A stretch of 64,000 nt of DNA from an uncultured Planctomycetaceae bacterium. Its GTDB lineage: Bacteria; Planctomycetota; Planctomycetia; Planctomycetales; Planctomycetaceae. Below the pieces are notes generated by a model that made no database searches, was not told where the DNA came from, and saw nothing but the letters and a program-made list of their open reading frames with translations. The DNA lies in the NCBI GenBank assembly GCA_963976765.1, contig CAXBME010000003.1:310001-374000 (forward strand), written 5' to 3'. Position 1 is the stretch's first letter, and each line of letters begins with the position of its first letter. Positions 50,491 to 64,000 of the stretch are shown here, piece by piece. The translations under genes and the position numbers were made by a program.

Positions 50491-51258
50491 TCAATGAAAC
50501 TCGTAGGTCTTACCAGGTTCGCCAATTTCGACATTCGGCAGGTTTAACCCGATCAGTTCTTTCTTGATCTGCTCGTCAAACGCCGTCTTGATATGAATGG
50601 CGATAACACGCGCTGGCTGTTTTAGTTTTTGCAATTCGCCGGCGAACATTTCCGGTGTGAGGTGCATGGCCTTCTCGGCCAGCCATGCCATGTGGTTGGG
50701 AAAACTGGACTCAAGGAAGACTGCCTGCAGATTCTGCTGTTCGTTGATGACTTCCCAGATTCGAGTTGTCGGATTCGTGTCGGAGACGATAGCGATCGCC
50801 GCTTCGTCGTCCTCAAGGATGAACCCCATCGCCGGTACGATATGATCGAGCGCGACAGGTGTGATTCGAACTCCTTCAACTTCGATCGTCGTTTCGCTCT
50901 GGATTTCCTGCGTCTTTAGAAACGGCGTTTCTTCGCCCGAAAGACGGATCATGTCCGGCCAGATGCGTTCGTTGAAGACATGCTTCTGAAGACAGTCCAG
51001 CACATCGGCATTGCCGTAGACCATTGGGCATTCAGGGCCTGGCGTATAAACGTTGTCGATGAAGATCGGCAACGATGCGAGGTGGTCTGTGTGCGAGTGC
51101 GAAATGAAAACATGCTTCACCTGCTTCTGTACGTCGAGCGGCGACACGAATCCAATACTCCCAGCATCAATCACGATTGAATCGTTGACGATGTACGAAG
51201 CCAGGATCTGCTGCCGCGGTCCATGCCCGACCGATGACTCGACCAGAGTGATTTTCAC
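50491..51258 (-). CDS. MBL-fold cyclic-nucleotide phosphodiesterase (class II-like)
   Basis: IDAGS, SHSHTDH, HVFNERIWPD, DHIVP, SDT, ESSFPN, HLTP, IHIK; lies directly downstream of a cyclase. Confidence 0.82.
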   Translation of the reverse strand: MKITLVESSVGHGPRQQILASYIVNDSIVIDAGSIGFVSPLDVQKQVKHVFISHSHTDHLASLPIFIDNVYTPGPECPMVYGNADVLDCLQKHVFNERIWPDMIRLSGEETPFLKTQEIQSETTIEVEGVRITPVALDHIVPAMGFILEDDEAAIAIVSDTNPTTRIWEVINEQQNLQAVFLESSFPNHMAWLAEKAMHLTPEMFAGELQKLKQPARVIAIHIKTAFDEQIKKELIGLNLPNVEIGEPGKTYEFH

Positions 51259-51319
51259 GAGTCTTACCCGTCCTTCCGATTGTGGTGCTGCCGCACGGGT
51301 ACCTTGTTTTGTGTGTTGA

Positions 51320-53089
51320 TTATTTGCTTGTCATATGAATGACACCGTCCCAGTCTGGGGGCGGTGCATTGTTGCTGGCGGTGATAAAGTCCGTCACAAA
51401 TTCTCTGGTCTTGTCTTCAGCTGGCATCCTGCTGAAAAGTTCGACCGATTCCTGCCAGTTTCCACCGATAAACGCGTTAACGGCCTTCTCATACAAAGCG
51501 ATTGAATCGTTGCTGATTGTGTTGTCCATCGCCGACGGAGGCAGAAGTTCGAACACGGTCATGTCCGTTTTCATACCGACTGGTCTGACCCGGGCGAGCT
51601 TTCGACAGCGGAGGTCGTCCGTGCCGAGTTTCTCGACAAAACTGGCAGTCACTTCATCAATGACGATGGACGCTTTCAGTTGCTTGCTCATCGTTTCGAG
51701 GCGTGCGCCCATGTTGACGACAGGCCCGAACGCGCCAACCTTGATCTGCTCAGTCGTTCCGATGCGACCGGCGATGGCAGGGCCGTGAGAGATTCCCACC
51801 CCAACCGTAAACCCACAGAGCGGGCTGCCCGGATTGGACCTCGCAGCTCGAAATGCCTGGTGAATATGAATCGCTGCTCGGCACGCGGCGATGGGGCCTT
51901 CTTCGTTGTCGCCGGGCCAGCCCCAGAAACCAAGCGCGGCATCGCCCTGAAAGTCAGCAATGACTCCGTCGTATCGAATAATTCCGGCGGTCATCACCCC
52001 CAGCGCTTCGCTGACGCGATCAAGTAATTCACGCAGGTTGTCTTTCGCCTCTTCCGACTTCTTCGAGAACCCGCGAACGTCGCAGAACAGAACGGTGATG
52101 TCCTTTTCACGCGGCTCAAGAATGTCCTGAGTCCCTGCCGTGCGGATGGCCTCGATTACGGCCGGGGAGAAAAATTGAGCGAGCCCAGCCTGTTGAGACT
52201 CCAGCGTTTTCACCTGGCGGATCGAGCCAATGAGGTCGCTGATCAGTTCGGTAAAGCGGAGATCCCCCTTGAGGTCAGTCTCGCCGATGGCCGACGCCCC
52301 AGGCGCACCAAACTGGCCTGAAACATACAGCGCCCAGCCTTTTGAGTGCTCACCTTTGAGCGGAATACAGAAGGCCCAGTCGAGATTTCCGGTCACTGTA
52401 AACGCGGGATTGGAATCGTCAGTGTCCTGCCAGATGTGGAGGATACCTTCGGCCCGATCGATCGCTGCCGCTATGAGTCGGCGACTTGGACTGAATCGAC
52501 CGATATCATCTCGTCGGCTGTCCCACTGCATCATGATCGGGTCGTCGTCAACGGTCATGTCTGGCGGGTAGCGAACGCAGGCTGCCGCCTGCGCATGCGG
52601 CATGGCGTCAAGCATCACCTTAATGGCAGCCTGAGCGAGTTCTTTATCCGTACGCGTTGCCGAAATGGCTTCAGGCAGTTTGGCGAGAACGTCCAGCCGC
52701 TCTTCGGCATTCTGAAACTTGAACTGCTTCAACTGGTCCGGGCCGAATGACTGTTCCTCAAGATGCGAGGCCGACAGTCCATCGTCCATCCCGACAGAGA
52801 TCAGCTGAAACATCGTCTGGCCGATCCGAAAACTCTGGCCGGGTGAGAGGTTGAACTCGCGAGTATCGACTTCGTTCAGGTAGACCGGGTTACGAGCGGC
52901 GTCGAGCCTCTTCACACCGATCGACTGTCCCTTCAGAACGATCTCGCAATGCTCGCGCGAAATCAGCAGATCCCAGGGAACCGCCCACCCGCTGCGAGGT
53001 GCTCTTCCGATGCGAATAACTTCACCGGCAGGAATCTCACGTCTCCATTGCTGGTTGGCTTCGACGCCGTTAACCATCAATTCCAACAT
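51320..53089 (-). CDS. FHA-GAF-like-class III nucleotide cyclase
   Basis: FHA: IGR...ISREH...N. Cyclase: VLFCDVRGFS, FQGDA, GVGISHG, VNMGARLE. C-terminal PPPDWDG. Confidence 0.92.
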   Translation of the reverse strand: MLELMVNGVEANQQWRREIPAGEVIRIGRAPRSGWAVPWDLLISREHCEIVLKGQSIGVKRLDAARNPVYLNEVDTREFNLSPGQSFRIGQTMFQLISVGMDDGLSASHLEEQSFGPDQLKQFKFQNAEERLDVLAKLPEAISATRTDKELAQAAIKVMLDAMPHAQAAACVRYPPDMTVDDDPIMMQWDSRRDDIGRFSPSRRLIAAAIDRAEGILHIWQDTDDSNPAFTVTGNLDWAFCIPLKGEHSKGWALYVSGQFGAPGASAIGETDLKGDLRFTELISDLIGSIRQVKTLESQQAGLAQFFSPAVIEAIRTAGTQDILEPREKDITVLFCDVRGFSKKSEEAKDNLRELLDRVSEALGVMTAGIIRYDGVIADFQGDAALGFWGWPGDNEEGPIAACRAAIHIHQAFRAARSNPGSPLCGFTVGVGISHGPAIAGRIGTTEQIKVGAFGPVVNMGARLETMSKQLKASIVIDEVTASFVEKLGTDDLRCRKLARVRPVGMKTDMTVFELLPPSAMDNTISNDSIALYEKAVNAFIGGNWQESVELFSRMPAEDKTREFVTDFITASNNAPPPDWDGVIHMTSK

Positions 53090-56620: not shown

Positions 56621-56749
56621 TCCGTCACTCCTTTGACGCTCTAAACCGAGAAGTCGCGAGACTATGCGACAGCTCAGAAAACAGGTCAAGATGTGATTGA
56701 GGCGGCAGGCGGCCAGGAACGATCACGCCATCAGGCCTGACAGCGTCTC

Positions 56750-59700
56750 TCAGCGGGTGGCTTCCCAGGCTCCGGCGAGGGTGTCCTTGAACTTTTCGGG
56801 GACAGACACAGCGGGGCGTTTTCCATTGGGATCCGCGAGGACGACCAGGTGGGGACGCAGCCAGGGAGCCGCACCGTCGAGAGTGGTCAGGAAGGCGTCG
56901 GGATCGTCGGCTCCGGCGGAGGCCAGAGCGTCGGACAGAGAAAGCTGCTGCTGCCTGGCCGTCAGCGCCAGCCCGGCCAGTTGCAGCACCAGGTCCGGCG
57001 GCAGCGACGGAGCCCCCGCCCGCTCCTGAGCCTCGGCATACGCCGCGTTCGCACGTGCCCGCCACTCGGCCGACGACGACGCATCGCCGCGGGCTTCAGC
57101 GATGCCGGCGAGGAGGTTGAGCGTCTGGTACGTGGTCGGGTCTCTCAACTGCTCGCGGAGGTCGAGGGCGGTGCGGGCATGGTGTTCGGCTTCGTCCAGC
57201 AGTTCGTGGCCGGGGCTGCCCGGCTCGATGACGGGGCCTGGGCTTCCAGCCAGTGATACCGGCTCGTCCGAGCCAGTGGCTCCACTGTCCGGACTCGGGC
57301 TGGAAGCCCGAGCCACGGCCAGCAGCCGCAGCCGGCCCGCCAGGTTGTTGTGGCTGATAGCGATGTTCGCCGGATGGCCGAGCTGCTGCTGGATGGCCAG
57401 GGACTCGCGTTCTTCGGAGATAGTCTGGTTCAGCAGCGTCTGTCGCACGTGCCGGTCAGTGGCGGTCTGGGCCTGATTCGACAGCAGGATCGCGCGATTG
57501 CTGCGGGCCGCCGCCTGCCCCTGCAGGTCACCAAGCTGTACGGCCAGTTCCAATGACCGCTCGTACCAGGCCAGCGCGGCCTCGGCGTGACCACGATTCT
57601 TATCCGCGTTGCCGAGAGAATTGAGCACCTGCATCTGTCCGGCTGTGTCACTGGCACGGGTGAAGGCGTCCAGAGCCTGGCGGAGGGCAGGGACGGCCTC
57701 GTCGGGGCGCTTCCGGTCCAGGTGCATGACGCCCAGCCCCTGCCACAGGATGCCTTCCGCCTCATCGTCACCAGCAGCGCGGGCAGCAGTCAGAGCCTCG
57801 TCATAACGCTGTTCAGCCTGCGTGTACTCGCCCTGCCGCTGCAGAATTTGAGCGATCCGGCCCAGGCCGCGGGCGACGGCGGAGTTGTCCTTCCGCTGGC
57901 GATCGAGCGTCAGACCCTGTTCCGCGACGGCGAGGGCTTCATCGAACCGGCCGAGATCAACGTAGGCGTTCGCCAGATCGCCCAGCGTGGCGGCGCGGTT
58001 GGTGGTGTCTCCGTTGTCGAAGCCGGTCGCTTCAAGCTCGGCGAACAGGTCGGCGGCGGCCTGTAGCGGAGCGATGGCCTGAGACGGGTGATGTTCGAAG
58101 TTGTAGTGAATCCGACCGAGGATCGCATTAGCGCTGGCTCGCTCGAAGTGGGTGTCCCAGTGCTGGACGCGGTCAAGGCGACGCAGCAGGCGGGTGAGAT
58201 CCTCGGCAGCAGCGGTGGCCTGCGTGCGGGCTCGCGACATCGCTGCCTCGCGGATCAGGTTCGATTCGATTTCTGTCAGCGTTTCAGCTTCCGGCGAGCG
58301 GGGCACGTAAGTACCCTGATTTCTGGCGTCGACTCCCTGCGAATCGGGAGATTGACCTCCCCCGCTCGCCGCTGAGTCCGGGCCTGTCATGTGCCGGGCC
58401 AGGTCCGTCATCAGGTCGGCGCCTTCGCTGCCTCGCCCGGTGAGTTCGAGAAACAGCTTGAGCGAACTCGCCAAGCCCACGGCCTGTTCGAGCTGGCCGC
58501 GCGTGACCGCCAGCGCGATGGCTCGCCGGATAACGACCTCACAGCCGCCGAGCAGACCTAACGCAACCTTCGAATCCGGCGTGCGGACCATCTGGTCGAA
58601 CGCGCCGCAGAGATTCCAGGCAGCATCGAGGAAGCGGTCATGGAGGGGAGCTTGTTCCAGCCTACTGGTGTAAACATCCAGCACGGGGTGAGGGCGGATC
58701 CACGGGTCGTCCACGCGGATCAGTCCCAGACGTTCGAACTCGGCCCTCGCCGTTTGCCAGGCGGTGTCGTCCAGGCCGGTGACATCTTGCGCCATCTTGT
58801 CGATGCAGCCACCGGAGAGCAGAGCGATGGCGGGCAGGACTTCGCGTGAGGCGTCGGTCAGGTGACGGATCGAGAACTCCAGCGAGTAACCGATGCTGCG
58901 GTTCCGGCCTTCGTGATGATTCTGCTCGGACGACGCCAGCAGCTTGCCCAGATCGTCGATCACTGTCTGCGGCCCCAGCGCCTTCACGTGCGGCGTCAAC
59001 AGTTCCAGAGCCAACGGATGCCCGAGAGCTCCCTGCACGATCGGTCGCAGCACGTCCGCCGTCCAGCCGCGTTTCTCCCGCTCGGACCTCGGCACGCCCA
59101 GCTTGTCGAGATACCCGACCAGCAGCATCAGCCCTTCTTCAATCAGCAGCTCCCCCAGCGCAAACGACCGCGCCGTCAGACCGGACGAGTCCAACCCCAC
59201 CTCCGGATCCCGACAAGTCACCAGCAGCCGGGTTTTGCCTCGCGTCCACGCGTCGGCAAGTTTCGCGAACTCGGCAAGCCGCGTTTGAATGTGCTCGTCG
59301 TCGGGCCGGTTCCCGCCTGCCGTGCTGCCGTCCGGCGATTCACCGTCGTTTGGTGCCGATTCGGAATCTGAGTGGATCGTCTGCGATCGGTGAGAACCGG
59401 TCCTACGATCACCGTCGCCCGCCAGGACTGTCGGCACGCCGAGCGCTCGCAGAAGCTGCTTCAGGCCAGCGGCGTACTCGATGGTGAAATCGGCGAAGGC
59501 GCGATCGGCCAGCAGCGGCGGCAGCTCACAGTCGTCAGCTTTCAGCGGCAGGATCAGCTTGCGGCCGGATTTGGCTTCCTCATTGATCCGGCTCTGCCAT
59601 TCCTTCTCGACCCAGCCATGCTCGACGCTCTGCCGAGTCAGCAGCACGGCCACGAAATCGGACTCCCGCAGCCCTGCCTGAATCCGCTGCGTGATTGAAT

Positions 59701-61480
59701 CACCCGTCTCGATCTCCCATTCATCAAACCAGACCTTCACGCCTGCGTCCCGCAGATCGGCCGCCAGACGTCGAGCCAGCATCTTGTCCGCGCTGGAGTG
59801 CGAGAGGAAAACCTGCGGAGCGTCGTCAACTGGATCAATCTGTTCCGACTCGCCTTGATGGTTGGCGGGAGGTGTATCCCCGGTCTGAAACGCGGGCAGC
59901 ACGGATTCGAAATTGTCCCACACCAGCAGCAGGCGGCGATCGGCGAACTGCTCGGCGATCCAGTCGGCGCGTTCGGACTCGGGACGTTTGAAGAAGTCGT
60001 GCCCTTCCAGCGCGACGCCCGTCTGTTCGATCAGCCGAGCGACCGTCAGGTTCTCCTCGAACGAAACGAAGATCGCGCCGTCCGGAAACAACCCGGACCG
60101 CAGCCACCAGTGAGCAGCCTCGCGCGAGATCGTCGTCTTGCCCATGCCGCCCGGAGCGTGAATCACAACCGCTCGCTCTCGGATCAGCAGCCGTTCCAGC
60201 CGGTGCAACTCTCTCCCCCGCCCGTGGAAACCGGCTTTCGGTTCCGGGCCGAAGCCGTGAAAAAGGGGATCGGCGGCCTGCTTCTTCGAGCGGCGAGTTG
60301 GCTTCTTTGGCACCAGCACCGGATCGTTACCGGCCTGATAAAGCTGCGGGACGAACCAGTCCTGCAAGTCGACTGTCGGAGCGTCGGCGGTGATGCGGAC
60401 TCGCCGAGCTTTCGTCGACAGCACCTGATTGCGAGCCGCCTGCAAAGCGTCTCCCACCGAGCGACAGGCGGAGACCGATTCGTAAAAGCTCTGCATCAGG
60501 ATGCGGGTCATATCGACATGCACCGAGTGCCCCATCGCGACCACGCTGCCGACGCCCTGCTTGACGAGTGCTCCGGCCACGGTTTCGCGATCCAGCGTTT
60601 TCGTCGAGGTCCGGCAGGCTTCAAGGACGACCAGCGGCACCTTGAACCGCGACACCAGATCGCCGAACTGAGTGGCTCGAACGAGGTCCAGCGACTCGTC
60701 ATCGTTCTCGAAACAGAGCGCTCCGATGCCGGCTTCAGTCGGCAGCGTGGTGCCGTGCCCGTCGAAATGCACGACGTGATACGGCTGCCCGGCGTTCTTT
60801 GCATCTTCGAGCGTTTTCGTGAGAGCGGCGAGCGTGCCGGGCCGACAGAAGTCGAGCGTGATCTGCGGGTTGCCCGCGACGGCCTCGATGATGGCTTCCG
60901 GCGTGAAGCGAGGATCCAGAAACCCGGTGTTGTCTGGTCGGCAGACGACGGCCAGCACGCGCAGCCCGCCCGAGGTGTCGAGCGACTCAACAGGCGCAAT
61001 GACGTTCGGCTTCGCTCGTCGAACCACAGTCACACCGAGCTGATGCAGCAGCGTGCCGTCGCCGCCGTTGTCACCGCCGCCGACCCGCATCAGTTCCCAC
61101 GGAGTCCGAAAGGCAACTTCGTCGCGGGCAGTGTCGGCTCGCAGTTCCAGCCGCCCGCCGCCGGCATGTTGAACATCACGAATGAAACCTCCGAGCAGCA
61201 CAGCGGCATCAGGAATCGATCTGAGTCCGCTCCACAATTCGCGACCGTACTTCGCCAGCTGGGACTCGATGTCGAGAGCCCGCGAGACATTGCCGCCTTC
61301 CGGGTAGCTCATGAATTCTTCGATGTACCAGCGAATGTCGTCGCGCTGCTTCGAGGTCAGTCCTTCGCGCACGGAAATCGATTGACTGGTTTCGCCGTTG
61401 AATCGCAGGACCGCCGAACCTTCCCACGGACTGCCGGCGACGGTTTGGAAGGTCAATTCAACGACAGGCAGATCGGCCAT
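56750..61480 (-). CDS. NLR-like protein: CHAT (caspase-like) protease - STAND NTPase with inserted TIR domain - TPR repeats
   Basis: TPWEL, HFDGHG, VLEAC (CHAT); FHGRGREL, PGGMGKT, LLVWDNFE, LLVTCR, GHPLAL (STAND); VFLSHSS...WFD...WVEKEW (TIR); C-terminal TPRs. Confidence 0.92.
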   Translation of the reverse strand: MADLPVVELTFQTVAGSPWEGSAVLRFNGETSQSISVREGLTSKQRDDIRWYIEEFMSYPEGGNVSRALDIESQLAKYGRELWSGLRSIPDAAVLLGGFIRDVQHAGGGRLELRADTARDEVAFRTPWELMRVGGGDNGGDGTLLHQLGVTVVRRAKPNVIAPVESLDTSGGLRVLAVVCRPDNTGFLDPRFTPEAIIEAVAGNPQITLDFCRPGTLAALTKTLEDAKNAGQPYHVVHFDGHGTTLPTEAGIGALCFENDDESLDLVRATQFGDLVSRFKVPLVVLEACRTSTKTLDRETVAGALVKQGVGSVVAMGHSVHVDMTRILMQSFYESVSACRSVGDALQAARNQVLSTKARRVRITADAPTVDLQDWFVPQLYQAGNDPVLVPKKPTRRSKKQAADPLFHGFGPEPKAGFHGRGRELHRLERLLIRERAVVIHAPGGMGKTTISREAAHWWLRSGLFPDGAIFVSFEENLTVARLIEQTGVALEGHDFFKRPESERADWIAEQFADRRLLLVWDNFESVLPAFQTGDTPPANHQGESEQIDPVDDAPQVFLSHSSADKMLARRLAADLRDAGVKVWFDEWEIETGDSITQRIQAGLRESDFVAVLLTRQSVEHGWVEKEWQSRINEEAKSGRKLILPLKADDCELPPLLADRAFADFTIEYAAGLKQLLRALGVPTVLAGDGDRRTGSHRSQTIHSDSESAPNDGESPDGSTAGGNRPDDEHIQTRLAEFAKLADAWTRGKTRLLVTCRDPEVGLDSSGLTARSFALGELLIEEGLMLLVGYLDKLGVPRSEREKRGWTADVLRPIVQGALGHPLALELLTPHVKALGPQTVIDDLGKLLASSEQNHHEGRNRSIGYSLEFSIRHLTDASREVLPAIALLSGGCIDKMAQDVTGLDDTAWQTARAEFERLGLIRVDDPWIRPHPVLDVYTSRLEQAPLHDRFLDAAWNLCGAFDQMVRTPDSKVALGLLGGCEVVIRRAIALAVTRGQLEQAVGLASSLKLFLELTGRGSEGADLMTDLARHMTGPDSAASGGGQSPDSQGVDARNQGTYVPRSPEAETLTEIESNLIREAAMSRARTQATAAAEDLTRLLRRLDRVQHWDTHFERASANAILGRIHYNFEHHPSQAIAPLQAAADLFAELEATGFDNGDTTNRAATLGDLANAYVDLGRFDEALAVAEQGLTLDRQRKDNSAVARGLGRIAQILQRQGEYTQAEQRYDEALTAARAAGDDEAEGILWQGLGVMHLDRKRPDEAVPALRQALDAFTRASDTAGQMQVLNSLGNADKNRGHAEAALAWYERSLELAVQLGDLQGQAAARSNRAILLSNQAQTATDRHVRQTLLNQTISEERESLAIQQQLGHPANIAISHNNLAGRLRLLAVARASSPSPDSGATGSDEPVSLAGSPGPVIEPGSPGHELLDEAEHHARTALDLREQLRDPTTYQTLNLLAGIAEARGDASSSAEWRARANAAYAEAQERAGAPSLPPDLVLQLAGLALTARQQQLSLSDALASAGADDPDAFLTTLDGAAPWLRPHLVVLADPNGKRPAVSVPEKFKDTLAGAWEATR
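57233..57316. repeat. REP-like inverted pair inside the CHAT-STAND CDS
   Basis: GGGGCCTGGGCTTCCAGCC...ACTCGGGCTGGAAGCCCGAGCCAC. Confidence 0.65.
58292..58371. repeat. REP-like inverted pair inside the CHAT-STAND CDS
   Basis: CGGCGAGCGGGG-CACGTAAGTACCCTGAT...ATCGGGAGATTGACCT-CCCCGCTCGCCG with perfect 12-bp termini. Confidence 0.75.
59299..59407. repeat. Degenerate GTAG-type REP pair inside the CHAT-STAND CDS
   Basis: CGTCGGGCCGGTTCCC...GAGAACCGGTCCTACG. Confidence 0.55.
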
Positions 61481-61628
61481 CAGTCACACACTTTCGGCTC
61501 ACGAATAGTCCCTGGTCAGCATCCGTGCCGCTGATTCGCGTGCCAGTCTGCGAATGAAGTGTCCAGTTGGCAACCAACCGGCTTCGAACTGGTGTGAGTT
61601 TTCTATGCTCACAAACCCGGTGCTGGAA

Positions 61629-63122
61629 TTACTGCACCAGAAAAATCTGCGGCGAGGGCGGCAGAGGTATCTCAGGGGTGATTCGCAAATCACCAACCAG
61701 TGCGGCTCTCATGGTCCCGACGACCGCGTTGAATTCAGACACGCCGGATCCCACCAGCATCAGATGGCCCCATTTCGCGTAGACAGCTCCGGCGAGCTTG
61801 TGCGAACCGCCGATTGGTGAGACAGGAGATTGCACAATGACAATGGGACGGCGGTCGTGCCGCCGCTGATAAATCGTGATGCCGTCAAACGGGCTACTCG
61901 GATCATCCAGGCCTGTAAGCATGGTTGGAAACAGGTCCTCGACGAGAACGACGCTGGGGGTCAAGGCGGACAAAAGTGATGCTGGCGGCTCCGAGTCGCC
62001 GTCCACCGAATCCGGAAGTCCAGTAACGGCATCGTAGGTTGACGAGTTGGTAACATAGAACATGACTCCCTCCGCGTTAATCCGCCCACCTGTCATCAAC
62101 AACGAAATGCCGTCTAGAGGTTCAGCACTGCGAATGACGTAAATTCCTGGCTCGAAATTCACCTTGCCGGAAATAATGTGAATCCACTCGTAAATTCCAG
62201 GCTCCAGCGTGACCGGTAGCCCGATCGGTAACCCTGCAATCGTGACGCCGCCACGCAAGGTCGTATCAACGTTGACCGGATCAACACTCGCCACCGGCAC
62301 GGGCAGGCGTCGGAACGGGTCAGCAACCGGCGACTGGTTGGCCTTCAGCGGGTTCGATTTGGCGGGGTCAACGTGCCCGGTGCTGGATGGCGTATCGACT
62401 CCACCAGTCACGCGAATTTCCTCCGCGAGCAGTTTCGACGTTCCGATAAATGGCGTTGCGGCAAGAGCGTACGGCGGGCCTGCGCCTGTCGAGACGGTCT
62501 GGCCGGCCTCGTCCACACCGCCCCATTCGTTGTTGATGGCGACCCTTCCATCCACGATCAGTCGGCCCAACCCTTCGACTTCCTGACCGCCGATAATTAC
62601 CGGCAGAGTCGGGATCGCAGGAGTGACGGACAGCACGGTGATCGCCTCTGGAGACGGATCGAGCACGATCAATGCCTGATCAACCGGGACGGCTTCGATG
62701 CCGGCGACAGACACCGTCCGGATTGTTGCCGGTGTGTCGTCGCCAAATGTACCCGCAAAAAACGTTGACGCCGGGTTGGAAACAACGACCTCGACAAAAC
62801 CGGTTCGTCCAGCAAAAGGCCCCTCAGATGGAGGACTACTGAGCGTCACCGTCGCACCGGCCAGGTCATTGAGATCGTGCACGAAATCTTCCGCAACGGA
62901 CGTGGCAGCGCTGAGTGATCCACCATCGGCGAGCACGTTCACTGCTGCAGTGCCCGCCGCGTCGGTCGCGTTCTGACAATGCCGATACTCCGCCATCAGG
63001 ATTGCACTATCGATCACAAGGGCAAGCATGCCGAAGATCGCAGTCAACGAGACAGCAACCAGCACAAGCACCTGGCCACTTCTCGGCGTGACAGCATTGT
63101 GATGACGATTCGCTTTTCGCAT
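61629..63122 (-). CDS. TadG-like Flp pilus assembly protein
   Basis: RSGQVLVLVAVSL...ALVID...QNATDAAG prepilin-like Tad N-terminus; start uncertain (ORF open to 63275). Confidence 0.82.
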   Translation of the reverse strand: MRKANRHHNAVTPRSGQVLVLVAVSLTAIFGMLALVIDSAILMAEYRHCQNATDAAGTAAVNVLADGGSLSAATSVAEDFVHDLNDLAGATVTLSSPPSEGPFAGRTGFVEVVVSNPASTFFAGTFGDDTPATIRTVSVAGIEAVPVDQALIVLDPSPEAITVLSVTPAIPTLPVIIGGQEVEGLGRLIVDGRVAINNEWGGVDEAGQTVSTGAGPPYALAATPFIGTSKLLAEEIRVTGGVDTPSSTGHVDPAKSNPLKANQSPVADPFRRLPVPVASVDPVNVDTTLRGGVTIAGLPIGLPVTLEPGIYEWIHIISGKVNFEPGIYVIRSAEPLDGISLLMTGGRINAEGVMFYVTNSSTYDAVTGLPDSVDGDSEPPASLLSALTPSVVLVEDLFPTMLTGLDDPSSPFDGITIYQRRHDRRPIVIVQSPVSPIGGSHKLAGAVYAKWGHLMLVGSGVSEFNAVVGTMRAALVGDLRITPEIPLPPSPQIFLVQ

Positions 63123-63287
63123 TCGGAGTGTCTGCTGTCTGAAAATAGTTGACGAGGTAAAGTCTGGCGGCTGACTTTGCAGCCCTTTCACTGGTTCCAT
63201 AAACGTCGTTTGAAACTCAACCAACGACGCGTTCCTGTTCTTCGACGCAGCGATTTTACGAGCCACTGTGGCCATAAATTCGTGAGG

Positions 63288-63782
63288 CTAATGCTGAATT
63301 CGCATAGTGCTGGCCCCTCGAAGCACAATTGGTTCTGTTCCAAACAGGAACGGAACGATGGGTTGATGTTGATAACTGACCAGGATGCGGACACGGTCAT
63401 TCATGGCGTTTCCACCGTCCGGCCACTCCGCCGTGATCGAGACATTCGCTGGCTCAAGTGCCACAAGCGCCGATCGGATAGTCGTTGCAATCTCGGATGA
63501 GTCTGCAGCCGAACCATTAAACGTGGACGGTCCCCATGACGCTCGTTCCGGTTCCGACAGCTCTCCTCGGACAATTGCTTCACGTGTGCCTCGCCGGGCT
63601 GCCTCCGAAACCAGGTTGAACCGAAGCACGCCCATCGCCAGATCAAGCATTCCCAGCAACAGAATCAGAATCACACTCAGAACAACCGCGCCTTCAATCA
63701 CGACGGCTCCACGTCGCTGATGGATCGTCGCGAATCGTCGCGTCATTGCACGGTCTGGGAATCGAGTTGAGGATGTTTTCAT
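63288..63782 (-). CDS. TadE-like pseudopilin
   Basis: RRGAVVIEGAVVL...EAARRGTR. Confidence 0.85.
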   Translation of the reverse strand: MKTSSTRFPDRAMTRRFATIHQRRGAVVIEGAVVLSVILILLLGMLDLAMGVLRFNLVSEAARRGTREAIVRGELSEPERASWGPSTFNGSAADSSEIATTIRSALVALEPANVSITAEWPDGGNAMNDRVRILVSYQHQPIVPFLFGTEPIVLRGASTMRIQH

Positions 63783-63813
63783 GGTGAGTCTCCAGGCGGT
63801 GTCGCAAATTCAG

Positions 63814-64000
63814 TCAAAGCTGGAGTTTCATGGTTGACTGTCGGTTCAGCTGAATGGTTTCCGGCAACCCGTTACTGCTGATCACCGGTTTAAACTCGTA
63901 GCCTGCATCGACCGAAACACGTTGACCACCAGCAGGGTCTACCGATACCTCGATCGCGATCTGAAGTGCCTCGATATCGAATCCGGGAGTCTCTGCCATT
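63814..64000 (-). CDS. 3' end of a probable TadE-like protein (runs off the window)
   Basis: RVSVDAGYEFKPV...IQLNRQSTM parallels the C-terminus of the adjacent TadE-like gene. Confidence 0.6.
   Translation of the reverse strand, partial: MAETPGFDIEALQIAIEVSVDPAGGQRVSVDAGYEFKPVISSNGLPETIQLNRQSTMKLQL

Follow-up and report, generated by a model that had tools for sequence, protein, structure and literature searches.

A TIR domain within the predicted NTPase of a CHAT-containing NLR-like protein from an uncultured planctomycete

Introduction

In the NLR/STAND receptors of plants, animals, fungi and bacteria, the effector is almost always N-terminal, and models of activation assume that the N-terminal domains are gathered above the ATPase ring. 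Here, we analyse an NLR-like gene located in a 64,000-nucleotide stretch of DNA (C3:310001-374000, hereafter the window) of the genome of an uncultured Planctomycetaceae bacterium, which comprises 8.57 Mb in 95 contigs and carries the gene in a single copy. Judging from its sequence, the gene product provides a natural case of a TIR domain with an intact catalytic motif that lies on flexible tethers inside the nucleotide-binding domain (NBD), beside a conventional N-terminal protease.

Among described systems, the Apaf-1/CED-4 apoptosome resembles this protein in the NB-ARC fold (Z 20.9-25.6) and in the coupling of an oligomerising ATPase to a caspase-fold protease. There, however, the protease is a separate protein recruited via CARD domains, whereas here CHAT is fused to the ATPase, the sensor consists of TPRs instead of WD40 repeats, and a TIR domain is placed inside the NBD. 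In plant TIR-NLRs, oligomerisation of the receptor switches on a TIR NADase, and the resistosomes of RPP1, ROQ1 and WRR4A share the NB-ARC core with our protein (Z 17-22), but their TIR is N-terminal, their sensor is formed by LRRs and they have no protease, while the TIR described here sits in the loop after Walker B. The bacterial Avs, TIR-NLR and bNACHT proteins likewise have effector, STAND NTPase and repeat sensor encoded by a single gene, and Avs3 was among the fold matches of our model. Nevertheless, no PADLOC model of Avs, bNACHT or another anti-phage STAND system (database version of 2023) matched over the NTPase and sensor; all 18 PADLOC matches were confined to the TIR or the TPR repeats, and the TIR-NLR model PDLC03015 covered residues 557-630 of the TIR part only. 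Type IV Thoeris also combines a TIR enzyme and a caspase-fold protease within a single immune system, but as two proteins with a diffusible signal, without a STAND NTPase and with a protease of a different family. Instead of separate TIR and caspase-like genes, the locus studied here has a single polypeptide with a STAND core, next to tad genes.

CHAT and TIR are described as frequent N-terminal domains of bacterial NLRs (10.1101/2020.01.06.895854), caspase-like and TIR effectors are found on STAND-type systems (PMC7159879), bacterial Apaf-1 orthologues carry N-terminal caspase-like proteases (PMC13581612), and the insertion of transmembrane segments into a NACHT module has been noted. Full-text literature searches, with subscription papers and bioRxiv supplements outside their reach, returned no report of a TIR or any other enzymatic domain inside a STAND NTPase, and no CHAT/TIR architecture labels were found in the supplements of PMC7159879 and PMC13581612. 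Furthermore, the papers found by literature search contained no phage-protection experiment for the CHAT-TIR-STAND family.

Results

Domain order of the NLR-like protein

The gene is a single open reading frame (ORF) of 1576 codons on the reverse strand, with an ATG start and without internal stop. Its product contains, in this order, the CHAT domain, Walker A and Walker B, a linker, TIR_2, a second linker, the sensor-1, GxP and winged-helix motifs, a helical domain and TPRs, and its features are located as follows (positions in the window, all on the reverse strand):

56750..61480, reverse: whole gene, 1576 amino acids (aa) plus stop; CHAT, NB-ARC with TIR insert, helical domain, TPR and conserved C-terminal region (ORF and Pfam)
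60311..61480, reverse: residues 1-390, CHAT protease, two-lobed, separase/Csx29-like (Pfam CHAT 126-375, AlphaFold2 model)
60752..60769, reverse: residues 238-243, HFDGHG motif with the predicted catalytic His (conservation)
60614..60625, reverse: residues 286-289, LEAC motif with the predicted catalytic Cys289 (conservation)
59891..60268, reverse: residues 405-530, first half of NB-ARC, strands 1-3 (Pfam, conservation, model)
60134-60151, reverse: residues 444-449, Walker A, GGMGKT
59906-59929, reverse: residues 518-525, Walker B, LLVWDNFE
59828..59890, reverse: residues 531-551, linker 1, 21 aa, low-complexity, predicted disordered, of differing length among relatives (alignment, predicted local distance difference test, pLDDT)
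59426..59827, reverse: residues 552-685, complete TIR_2 domain inside the NTPase (Pfam, 8.4e-30)
59597-59614, reverse: residues 623-628, WVEKEW motif with Glu627 (alignment to AbTIR)
59279..59425, reverse: residues 686-734, linker 2, 49 aa, low-complexity, predicted disordered (alignment, pLDDT)
58481..59278, reverse: residues 735-1000, remainder of NB-ARC with helix, sensor-1 strand, helical domain and winged helix with conserved His-Pro (model, conservation)
59210-59227, reverse: residues 752-757, sensor-1 strand, LLVTCR
59006-59023, reverse: residues 820-825, GHPLAL in the helical domain
57281..58153, reverse: residues 1110-1400, TPR array, presumed sensor (Pfam TPR_12, TPR_1, TPR_MalT and others)

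A preliminary description of this DNA, made from its letters, had reported an NTPase interrupted by a complete TIR domain, and each of the seven motifs that it quoted (HFDGHG, LEAC, GGMGKT, LLVWDNFE, WVEKEW, LLVTCR and GHPLAL) was recovered where it had been placed. Scanning with hidden Markov models of Pfam detected CHAT with 79.7 bits (cut-off 24), NB-ARC at residues 437-522 with 27.3 bits (cut-off 23.5) and TIR_2 at residues 557-677 with 104.2 bits (cut-off 28), as well as TPR families at approximately residues 1160-1380. The match to TIR_2 extends over the whole model (positions 1-122 of 122), whereas that to NB-ARC, interrupted by the insert, is restricted to model positions 20-107 of 248. 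With E-values of 1e-22 to 1e-30 and a motif order that is conserved in homologues, the domain matches are not due to chance, and both the domain scan and the AlphaFold2 model place the TIR between Walker B and sensor-1 of a split NTPase, in agreement with the preliminary description.

The NTPase core is predicted to fold around the insert

In order to compare the loop that follows Walker B, the NTPase region was aligned with 16 relatives. In relatives without a TIR, a loop of ~7 residues leads from the conserved string after Walker B (VWDNFESVLPAF) to a conserved helix, which precedes the sensor-1 strand (RLLVTCR). In our protein (P0001) and in three relatives (P0002, P0003 and P0004, see below), the TIR occupies the same loop, flanked on either side by a low-complexity linker. 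Walker B and sensor-1 are both present in 148 of 159 relatives; in the three full-length proteins with the insert, sensor-1 lies 208-273 aa after the end of Walker B, as compared with medians of 38.5-45.5 aa in each of the other architectures (145 relatives). Low-complexity expansions of this loop, up to 106 aa, are scattered over several lineages, which marks it as a recurrent soft spot that captured a folded domain in one small clade. Among the proteins in which the loop was independently expanded with low-complexity sequence, to 60-106 aa, are P0166, P0186, P0175, P0101 and P0083, and that of P0166 carries a Gly-Lys-Asp-rich repeat. A loop after Walker B that tolerates inserts of up to 273 aa would also be useful for the engineering of STAND proteins.

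The structure of residues 395-1000 was predicted with AlphaFold2 from an alignment of 47 sequences (A2), in which the TIR part is covered by four sequences. Short TIR-only proteins were left out of A2, as in an earlier alignment (A1) they had been misaligned and filled 11 of the 134 TIR columns. The resulting model had a mean pLDDT of 79.9 and a predicted template modelling score (pTM) of 0.70, with pLDDT >90 in both NTPase halves and <50 in the linkers (model residues 142-157 and 293-331). Its best fold match (Foldseek, VIA-align) was CED-4 (2a5y_C; Z 25.6, root mean square deviation (rmsd) 4.8, 339 aligned residues, model residues 6-596), and the NRC4 resistosome (9cc9_G, Z 25.1) and Apaf-1 (5juy_A, Z 20.9) were further matches. 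K448, T449, D522, E525, H821 and L823 are invariant in the 47 sequences, and R757, P822, H931 and P932 reach a conservation of at least 90%. Walker A and B, the sensor-1 Arg, GxP, the winged-helix His, the fold and the Pfam score together identify the region as a NB-ARC/AP-ATPase of the STAND class; LLVTCR, GHPLAL and H931-P932 presumably correspond to the motifs RNBS-B, GLPL and MHD.

The ATPase core is thus predicted to fold around the insert with its motif set kept, which the placement of the TIR on two disordered tethers would permit. From the model, the TIR was most likely captured in a permissive surface loop that follows the Walker B strand and precedes the helix before sensor-1.

The N-terminal CHAT protease

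Residues 1-400 were modelled with a pLDDT of 88.2 and a pTM of 0.90. Structure comparison of the CHAT model yielded Csx29 (7y9x_B; Z 20.9, rmsd 3.5, 296 aligned), separase (5fc2_B, Z 19.0) and SAVED-CHAT (8tl0_A, Z 17.0). A sequence search of the same residues against the Protein Data Bank found nothing (best E 0.5), and a profile search with A2 returned TPR proteins only. H238, G241, H242, G243 and C289 are invariant in 52 sequences, and the His/Cys dyad is therefore intact, as had been noted before. The match to the family model, the dyad formed by H242 and C289 and the two-lobed fold of the separase/Csx29 type assign the domain to the caspase-like CHAT proteases of clan CD. A predicted complex of the CHAT and TIR parts scored 0.00 (mark 0.32), a result that weighs on neither side.

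The inserted TIR domain

The inserted TIR matches the NAD(+) hydrolase AbTIR of Acinetobacter with 5.5e-16. In the alignment, the Glu of the W-x-x-x-E motif of AbTIR, which we take to be the catalytic residue, falls on E627 (the second Glu in WVEKE). All of 34 related TIRs share W623, and at least 90% of them have E627; E627 is also kept in all four insert-bearing proteins. The TIR is complete and retains its Glu, as the preliminary description had it. Compared with P0001, identical residues occupy 119, 124 and 79 of the 134 TIR positions in P0002, P0003 and P0004, respectively, and identity over the whole fragment is 86%, 81% and 58%. In these sequences, the TIR is conserved at least as well as the rest of the fragment, whereas the flanking linkers vary in length and sequence among the relatives. 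With its full-length match to TIR_2 and the presumed catalytic Glu, the domain is predicted to be of the NADase type and could cleave NAD+.

The insert layout is rare within a large family

A word-indexed search of 5.8 billion clusters yielded 273 proteins at E 1e-3 or better; 7999 candidates were scored and 120 of the matches listed. Among the matches listed, the insert layout was found in three further 90%-identity clusters, the only ones to cover the whole query: P0002 (79%, Logan), P0003 (80%, JGI) and P0004 (56%, ENA). An exhaustive search of 1.84 billion representatives gave 145 further proteins, the best 150 matches being mostly TIR-only proteins; none of the 145 has a TIR between the NTPase halves, although distant STAND families with a similar insert could escape the best 150 matches. 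In addition, none of 40 related genomes contains an orthologue, while sibling layouts are carried by three of them.

When the segments were mapped on the 120 and 145 proteins, both NTPase halves could be located in 159, comprising at least 74 with the order CHAT-TIR-NTPase, at least eight TIR-CHAT-NTPase, at least three TIR-NTPase, at least 71 without TIR, and three with the insert; P0003 is truncated and stands outside this count. The sibling CHAT-TIR- and TIR-CHAT-NB-ARC-TPR proteins, which are uncharacterised, share the CHAT, NB-ARC, helical, TPR and C-terminal modules as well as TIR_2 with our protein, but their TIR precedes the NTPase or CHAT, their NTPase is contiguous and they fall into the other main clade of the NTPase tree. 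Thus, as far as sequence comparison goes, the pairing of CHAT and TIR is common in the CHAT-STAND family (at least 82 clusters with the TIR before the NTPase or before CHAT) and the insert layout is rare. The preliminary description had proposed a new dual-effector architecture; both effector heads are indeed present, but their pairing is not new in view of the sibling clusters, and only the position of the TIR is rare. The new element is the TIR position, in a rare variant of a large, known, uncharacterised NLR-like family. Proteins without TIR, with TIR before the NTPase and with TIR before CHAT are supplied by the same family as controls for testing the importance of effector position and the control of two enzymes by one sensor.

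Origin of the insert

A quick, unrooted IQ-TREE tree with SH-aLRT support was calculated from the concatenated NTPase halves of 110 rows, leaving out 49 of the 74 CHAT-TIR-NTPase rows by random subsampling and the truncated P0003. P0001 grouped with P0002 (100), followed by P0005 (99) and P0004 (99). This insert group lies within a clade of 32 rows (97), the other 28 of which have no TIR, whereas the CHAT-TIR-NTPase and TIR-CHAT-NTPase rows are all found in the other clade of 78 rows. Moreover, the inserted TIR reaches a median of 145 bits with N-terminal TIRs of short, unrelated proteins, whose fusion partners are FHA, GTPase, AAA, NACHT, CHAT or lectin domains, but medians of 39 and 53 bits with the TIRs found in the two sibling layouts. 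The nesting among relatives that lack a TIR, together with the resemblance to TIRs of unrelated short proteins, indicates that the insert is an independent capture of a promiscuous TIR module. At least four layouts join TIR to the CHAT-STAND scaffold, which suggests a benefit from the combination.

Although nested in the insert clade, P0005 (1974 aa), nearest among the relatives that lack the insert, has a 60-aa low-complexity stretch in the loop in place of a TIR insert, and a TIR-NB-ARC module is fused ahead of its CHAT-NB-ARC-TPR body. Judging from the unrooted tree, the TIR could have been lost from the loop of P0005, or TIR could have been gained twice. P0005 itself represents either two NLRs fused in tandem or an artefact of merged gene calling.

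Genomic setting and acquisition

The gene lies at the edge of an 18.3-kb segment, 148 bp downstream of a tad operon on the same strand. The following features place it in this context:

56702..64000, no strand: left part of the 18.3-kb segment (G000 C3:366702-384997; L022:702-18997), which runs past the end of the window (absent in five same-genus genomes)
61629..63275, reverse: TadG-like gene, last of the tad/Flp operon, not a partner of the NLR-like gene (operon position; Atlas matches 0.97, 10 of 10 with PF13400 Tad)

In all five same-genus genomes, the block ending at position 56700 of the window is joined, within ~250 bp, to sequence that is located 18.3 kb further on in our genome. The segment contains the NLR-like gene and a complete tad/Flp pilus cluster. 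With a GC content of 0.649, the NLR-like gene exceeds all 8199 genome windows of equal size (mean 0.5627, standard deviation 0.0167), and its GC content at third codon positions (GC3), 0.757 against 0.634 ± 0.048, belongs to the top 0.76% of 2773 long ORFs. The neighbouring tad genes range from 0.51 to 0.56. The higher GC content of the gene relative to the tad genes, which the preliminary description had noticed in spot counts, was thereby confirmed, the gene being the richest 4.7-kb stretch of the entire genome in the sliding-window analysis. The acquisition that it had suggested likewise agrees with the empty site in the five genomes and with the outlying GC and GC3. These data support that the NLR-like gene reached the genome by horizontal transfer, and it probably arrived separately from the tad cluster.

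The borders of the segment show no direct repeats longer than 8 bp, and no integrase or tRNA was seen in the segment. Its tad/Flp cluster encodes a TadG-like, two TadE-like, TadC, TadB, TadA, a CpaE-like ATPase, RcpC, a secretin and a TPR protein. The 548-aa ORF upstream of the NLR-like gene was considered as a partner gene and rejected, as it is the TadG-like gene that ends the tad operon. No promoter-like or terminator-like site stood out upstream of the NLR-like gene.

Proposed mechanism and alternative explanations

By analogy with Apaf-1/CED-4, plant TIR-NLR resistosomes and bacterial Avs proteins, we consider it reasonably probable that the protein is a ligand-triggered NLR-like switch in which the CHAT protease and the TIR NADase are both activated on oligomerisation; we infer from this analogy that there is a ligand and an oligomer, as well as the two enzyme activities and the role in the cell. 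Binding of a ligand by the TPR array would release the ADP-locked NB-ARC, whose domains would then oligomerise. The resulting crowding would activate the CHAT domains by proximity and, at the same time, concentrate the tethered TIRs so that they could pair into an active NADase. Proteolysis and loss of NAD+ (or a cyclic ADP-ribose-type signal) would be the outcome, leading to growth arrest or death of a cell in conflict, for instance during phage infection.

Several observations weigh against this picture. PADLOC and NCBIfam yielded no model that matches the protein over its full length, and a PADLOC scan of 23 neighbouring ORFs gave no defence-specific match, the only matches being a generic cyclase and a TPR match. 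In the AlphaFold2 model, the TIR part reached only middling confidence (pLDDT 45-83), because just four sequences cover it. The joins also lack confirmation at the level of reads: five read runs are listed, none of them recorded as RNA, and in four of them no short Logan contig bridges a TIR border. A further contig on which the gene occurs (L023) is not independent, as it shows 100% identity over 21,503 bases; a search for related loci returned this identical scaffold and TIR-only matches only.

Missing read support, together with the draft state of the genome in 95 contigs, is what could be said for the insert being an assembly chimera, or for the gene being in decay. Nevertheless, P0002, P0003 and P0004, which stem from three source collections, have the same joins with different linkers, which contradicts a chimera. 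As the frame is open, the motifs are conserved and the GC3 of the TIR (0.769) is like that of the rest of the gene (0.735-0.80), we regard both chimera and decay as highly improbable. Runs X3 and X4 of another study contain a relative ~92% alike, whose contig covers the TIR nucleotides 59585-59818 and then diverges from the window, as expected with a different linker, and 11 of the 15 listed differences in this part are at third codon positions. Run X4 furthermore showed one weak joint of 58668 to 60752 (side 22), probably from another organism. Taking the insert as genuine, the TIR might still be a non-catalytic module for assembly or autoinhibition, helping or gating oligomerisation, with CHAT as the sole effector. 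Scaffold roles are common among TIR domains, and an insert that adjoins the nucleotide site could gate the switch. All four insert-bearing proteins keep W-x-x-x-E and its Glu, however, as do at least 90% of the nearest TIRs, and the closest solved relatives (AbTIR) are active NADases, so that we judge this role unlikely.

A role outside defence, such as regulated cell death, kin conflict in a socially complex bacterium or tad-pilus-linked signalling, seems rather unlikely to us. It would fit the location downstream of the tad operon on the same strand and in the same strain-specific segment, and the lack of a defence island among the 23 ORFs examined with PADLOC; CHAT- and TIR-NLRs have also been reported to be enriched in multicellular bacteria (10.1101/2020.01.06.895854). 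The sharply different composition (0.65 versus 0.51-0.56), on the other hand, suggests separate origins of the gene and the tad cluster, and an accidental neighbourhood. We think it quite unlikely that the TIR is a signal generator whose cyclic ADP-ribose-type product activates CHAT in the same or a neighbouring molecule, in the manner of a type IV Thoeris cascade on one polypeptide. In type IV Thoeris, the TIR product N7-cyclic ADP-ribose (N7-cADPR) can activate a caspase-like protease, and the joining of TIR to the CHAT-STAND family in at least four layouts argues for functional coupling. Pfam revealed no known ligand-binding domain for such a signal, though, the protease of type IV Thoeris is another caspase-like protein with a gene of its own, and many relatives have CHAT alone (at least 71 of the 159 mapped are without TIR). 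The joint activation of CHAT and TIR by oligomerisation may have an extension, in itself quite doubtful, in which the geometry of the NB-ARC ring templates TIR-TIR pairing between protomers while CHAT is gathered at the N-terminal face, or, as a variant, the TIR product activates CHAT. If this ring-templated TIR or the feedback were true, the protein would constitute a self-contained two-output or two-step resistosome, and effector activation in NLRs would need no N-terminal position.

Further observations in the genome

Within the window, positions 50491-53089 on the reverse strand encode an FHA-domain nucleotide cyclase (589 aa) and, beside it, a class-II phosphodiesterase-like protein of the metallo-beta-lactamase fold. 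The cyclase gave a partial match to PycC of PADLOC (5.2e-15), which probably reflects a shared cyclase fold and not a Pycsar system. The sequences G000 C3:151589-158924 and C3:384998-387779, which are adjacent in three same-genus genomes, are ~226 kb apart here, indicating that a large rearrangement accompanies the site of the island. At the right junction (G000 C3:384901-385060), a sulfatase-like gene keeps the conserved catalytic N-terminal motif, and its signal-peptide-coding start differs from that of relatives. A second large CHAT protein, whose open frame spans 1580 aa (C37:59459-60118), is encoded in the same genome, along with three more proteins that have a TIR domain (C1:248741-249028, C34:53904-54131 and C16:57405-57590).

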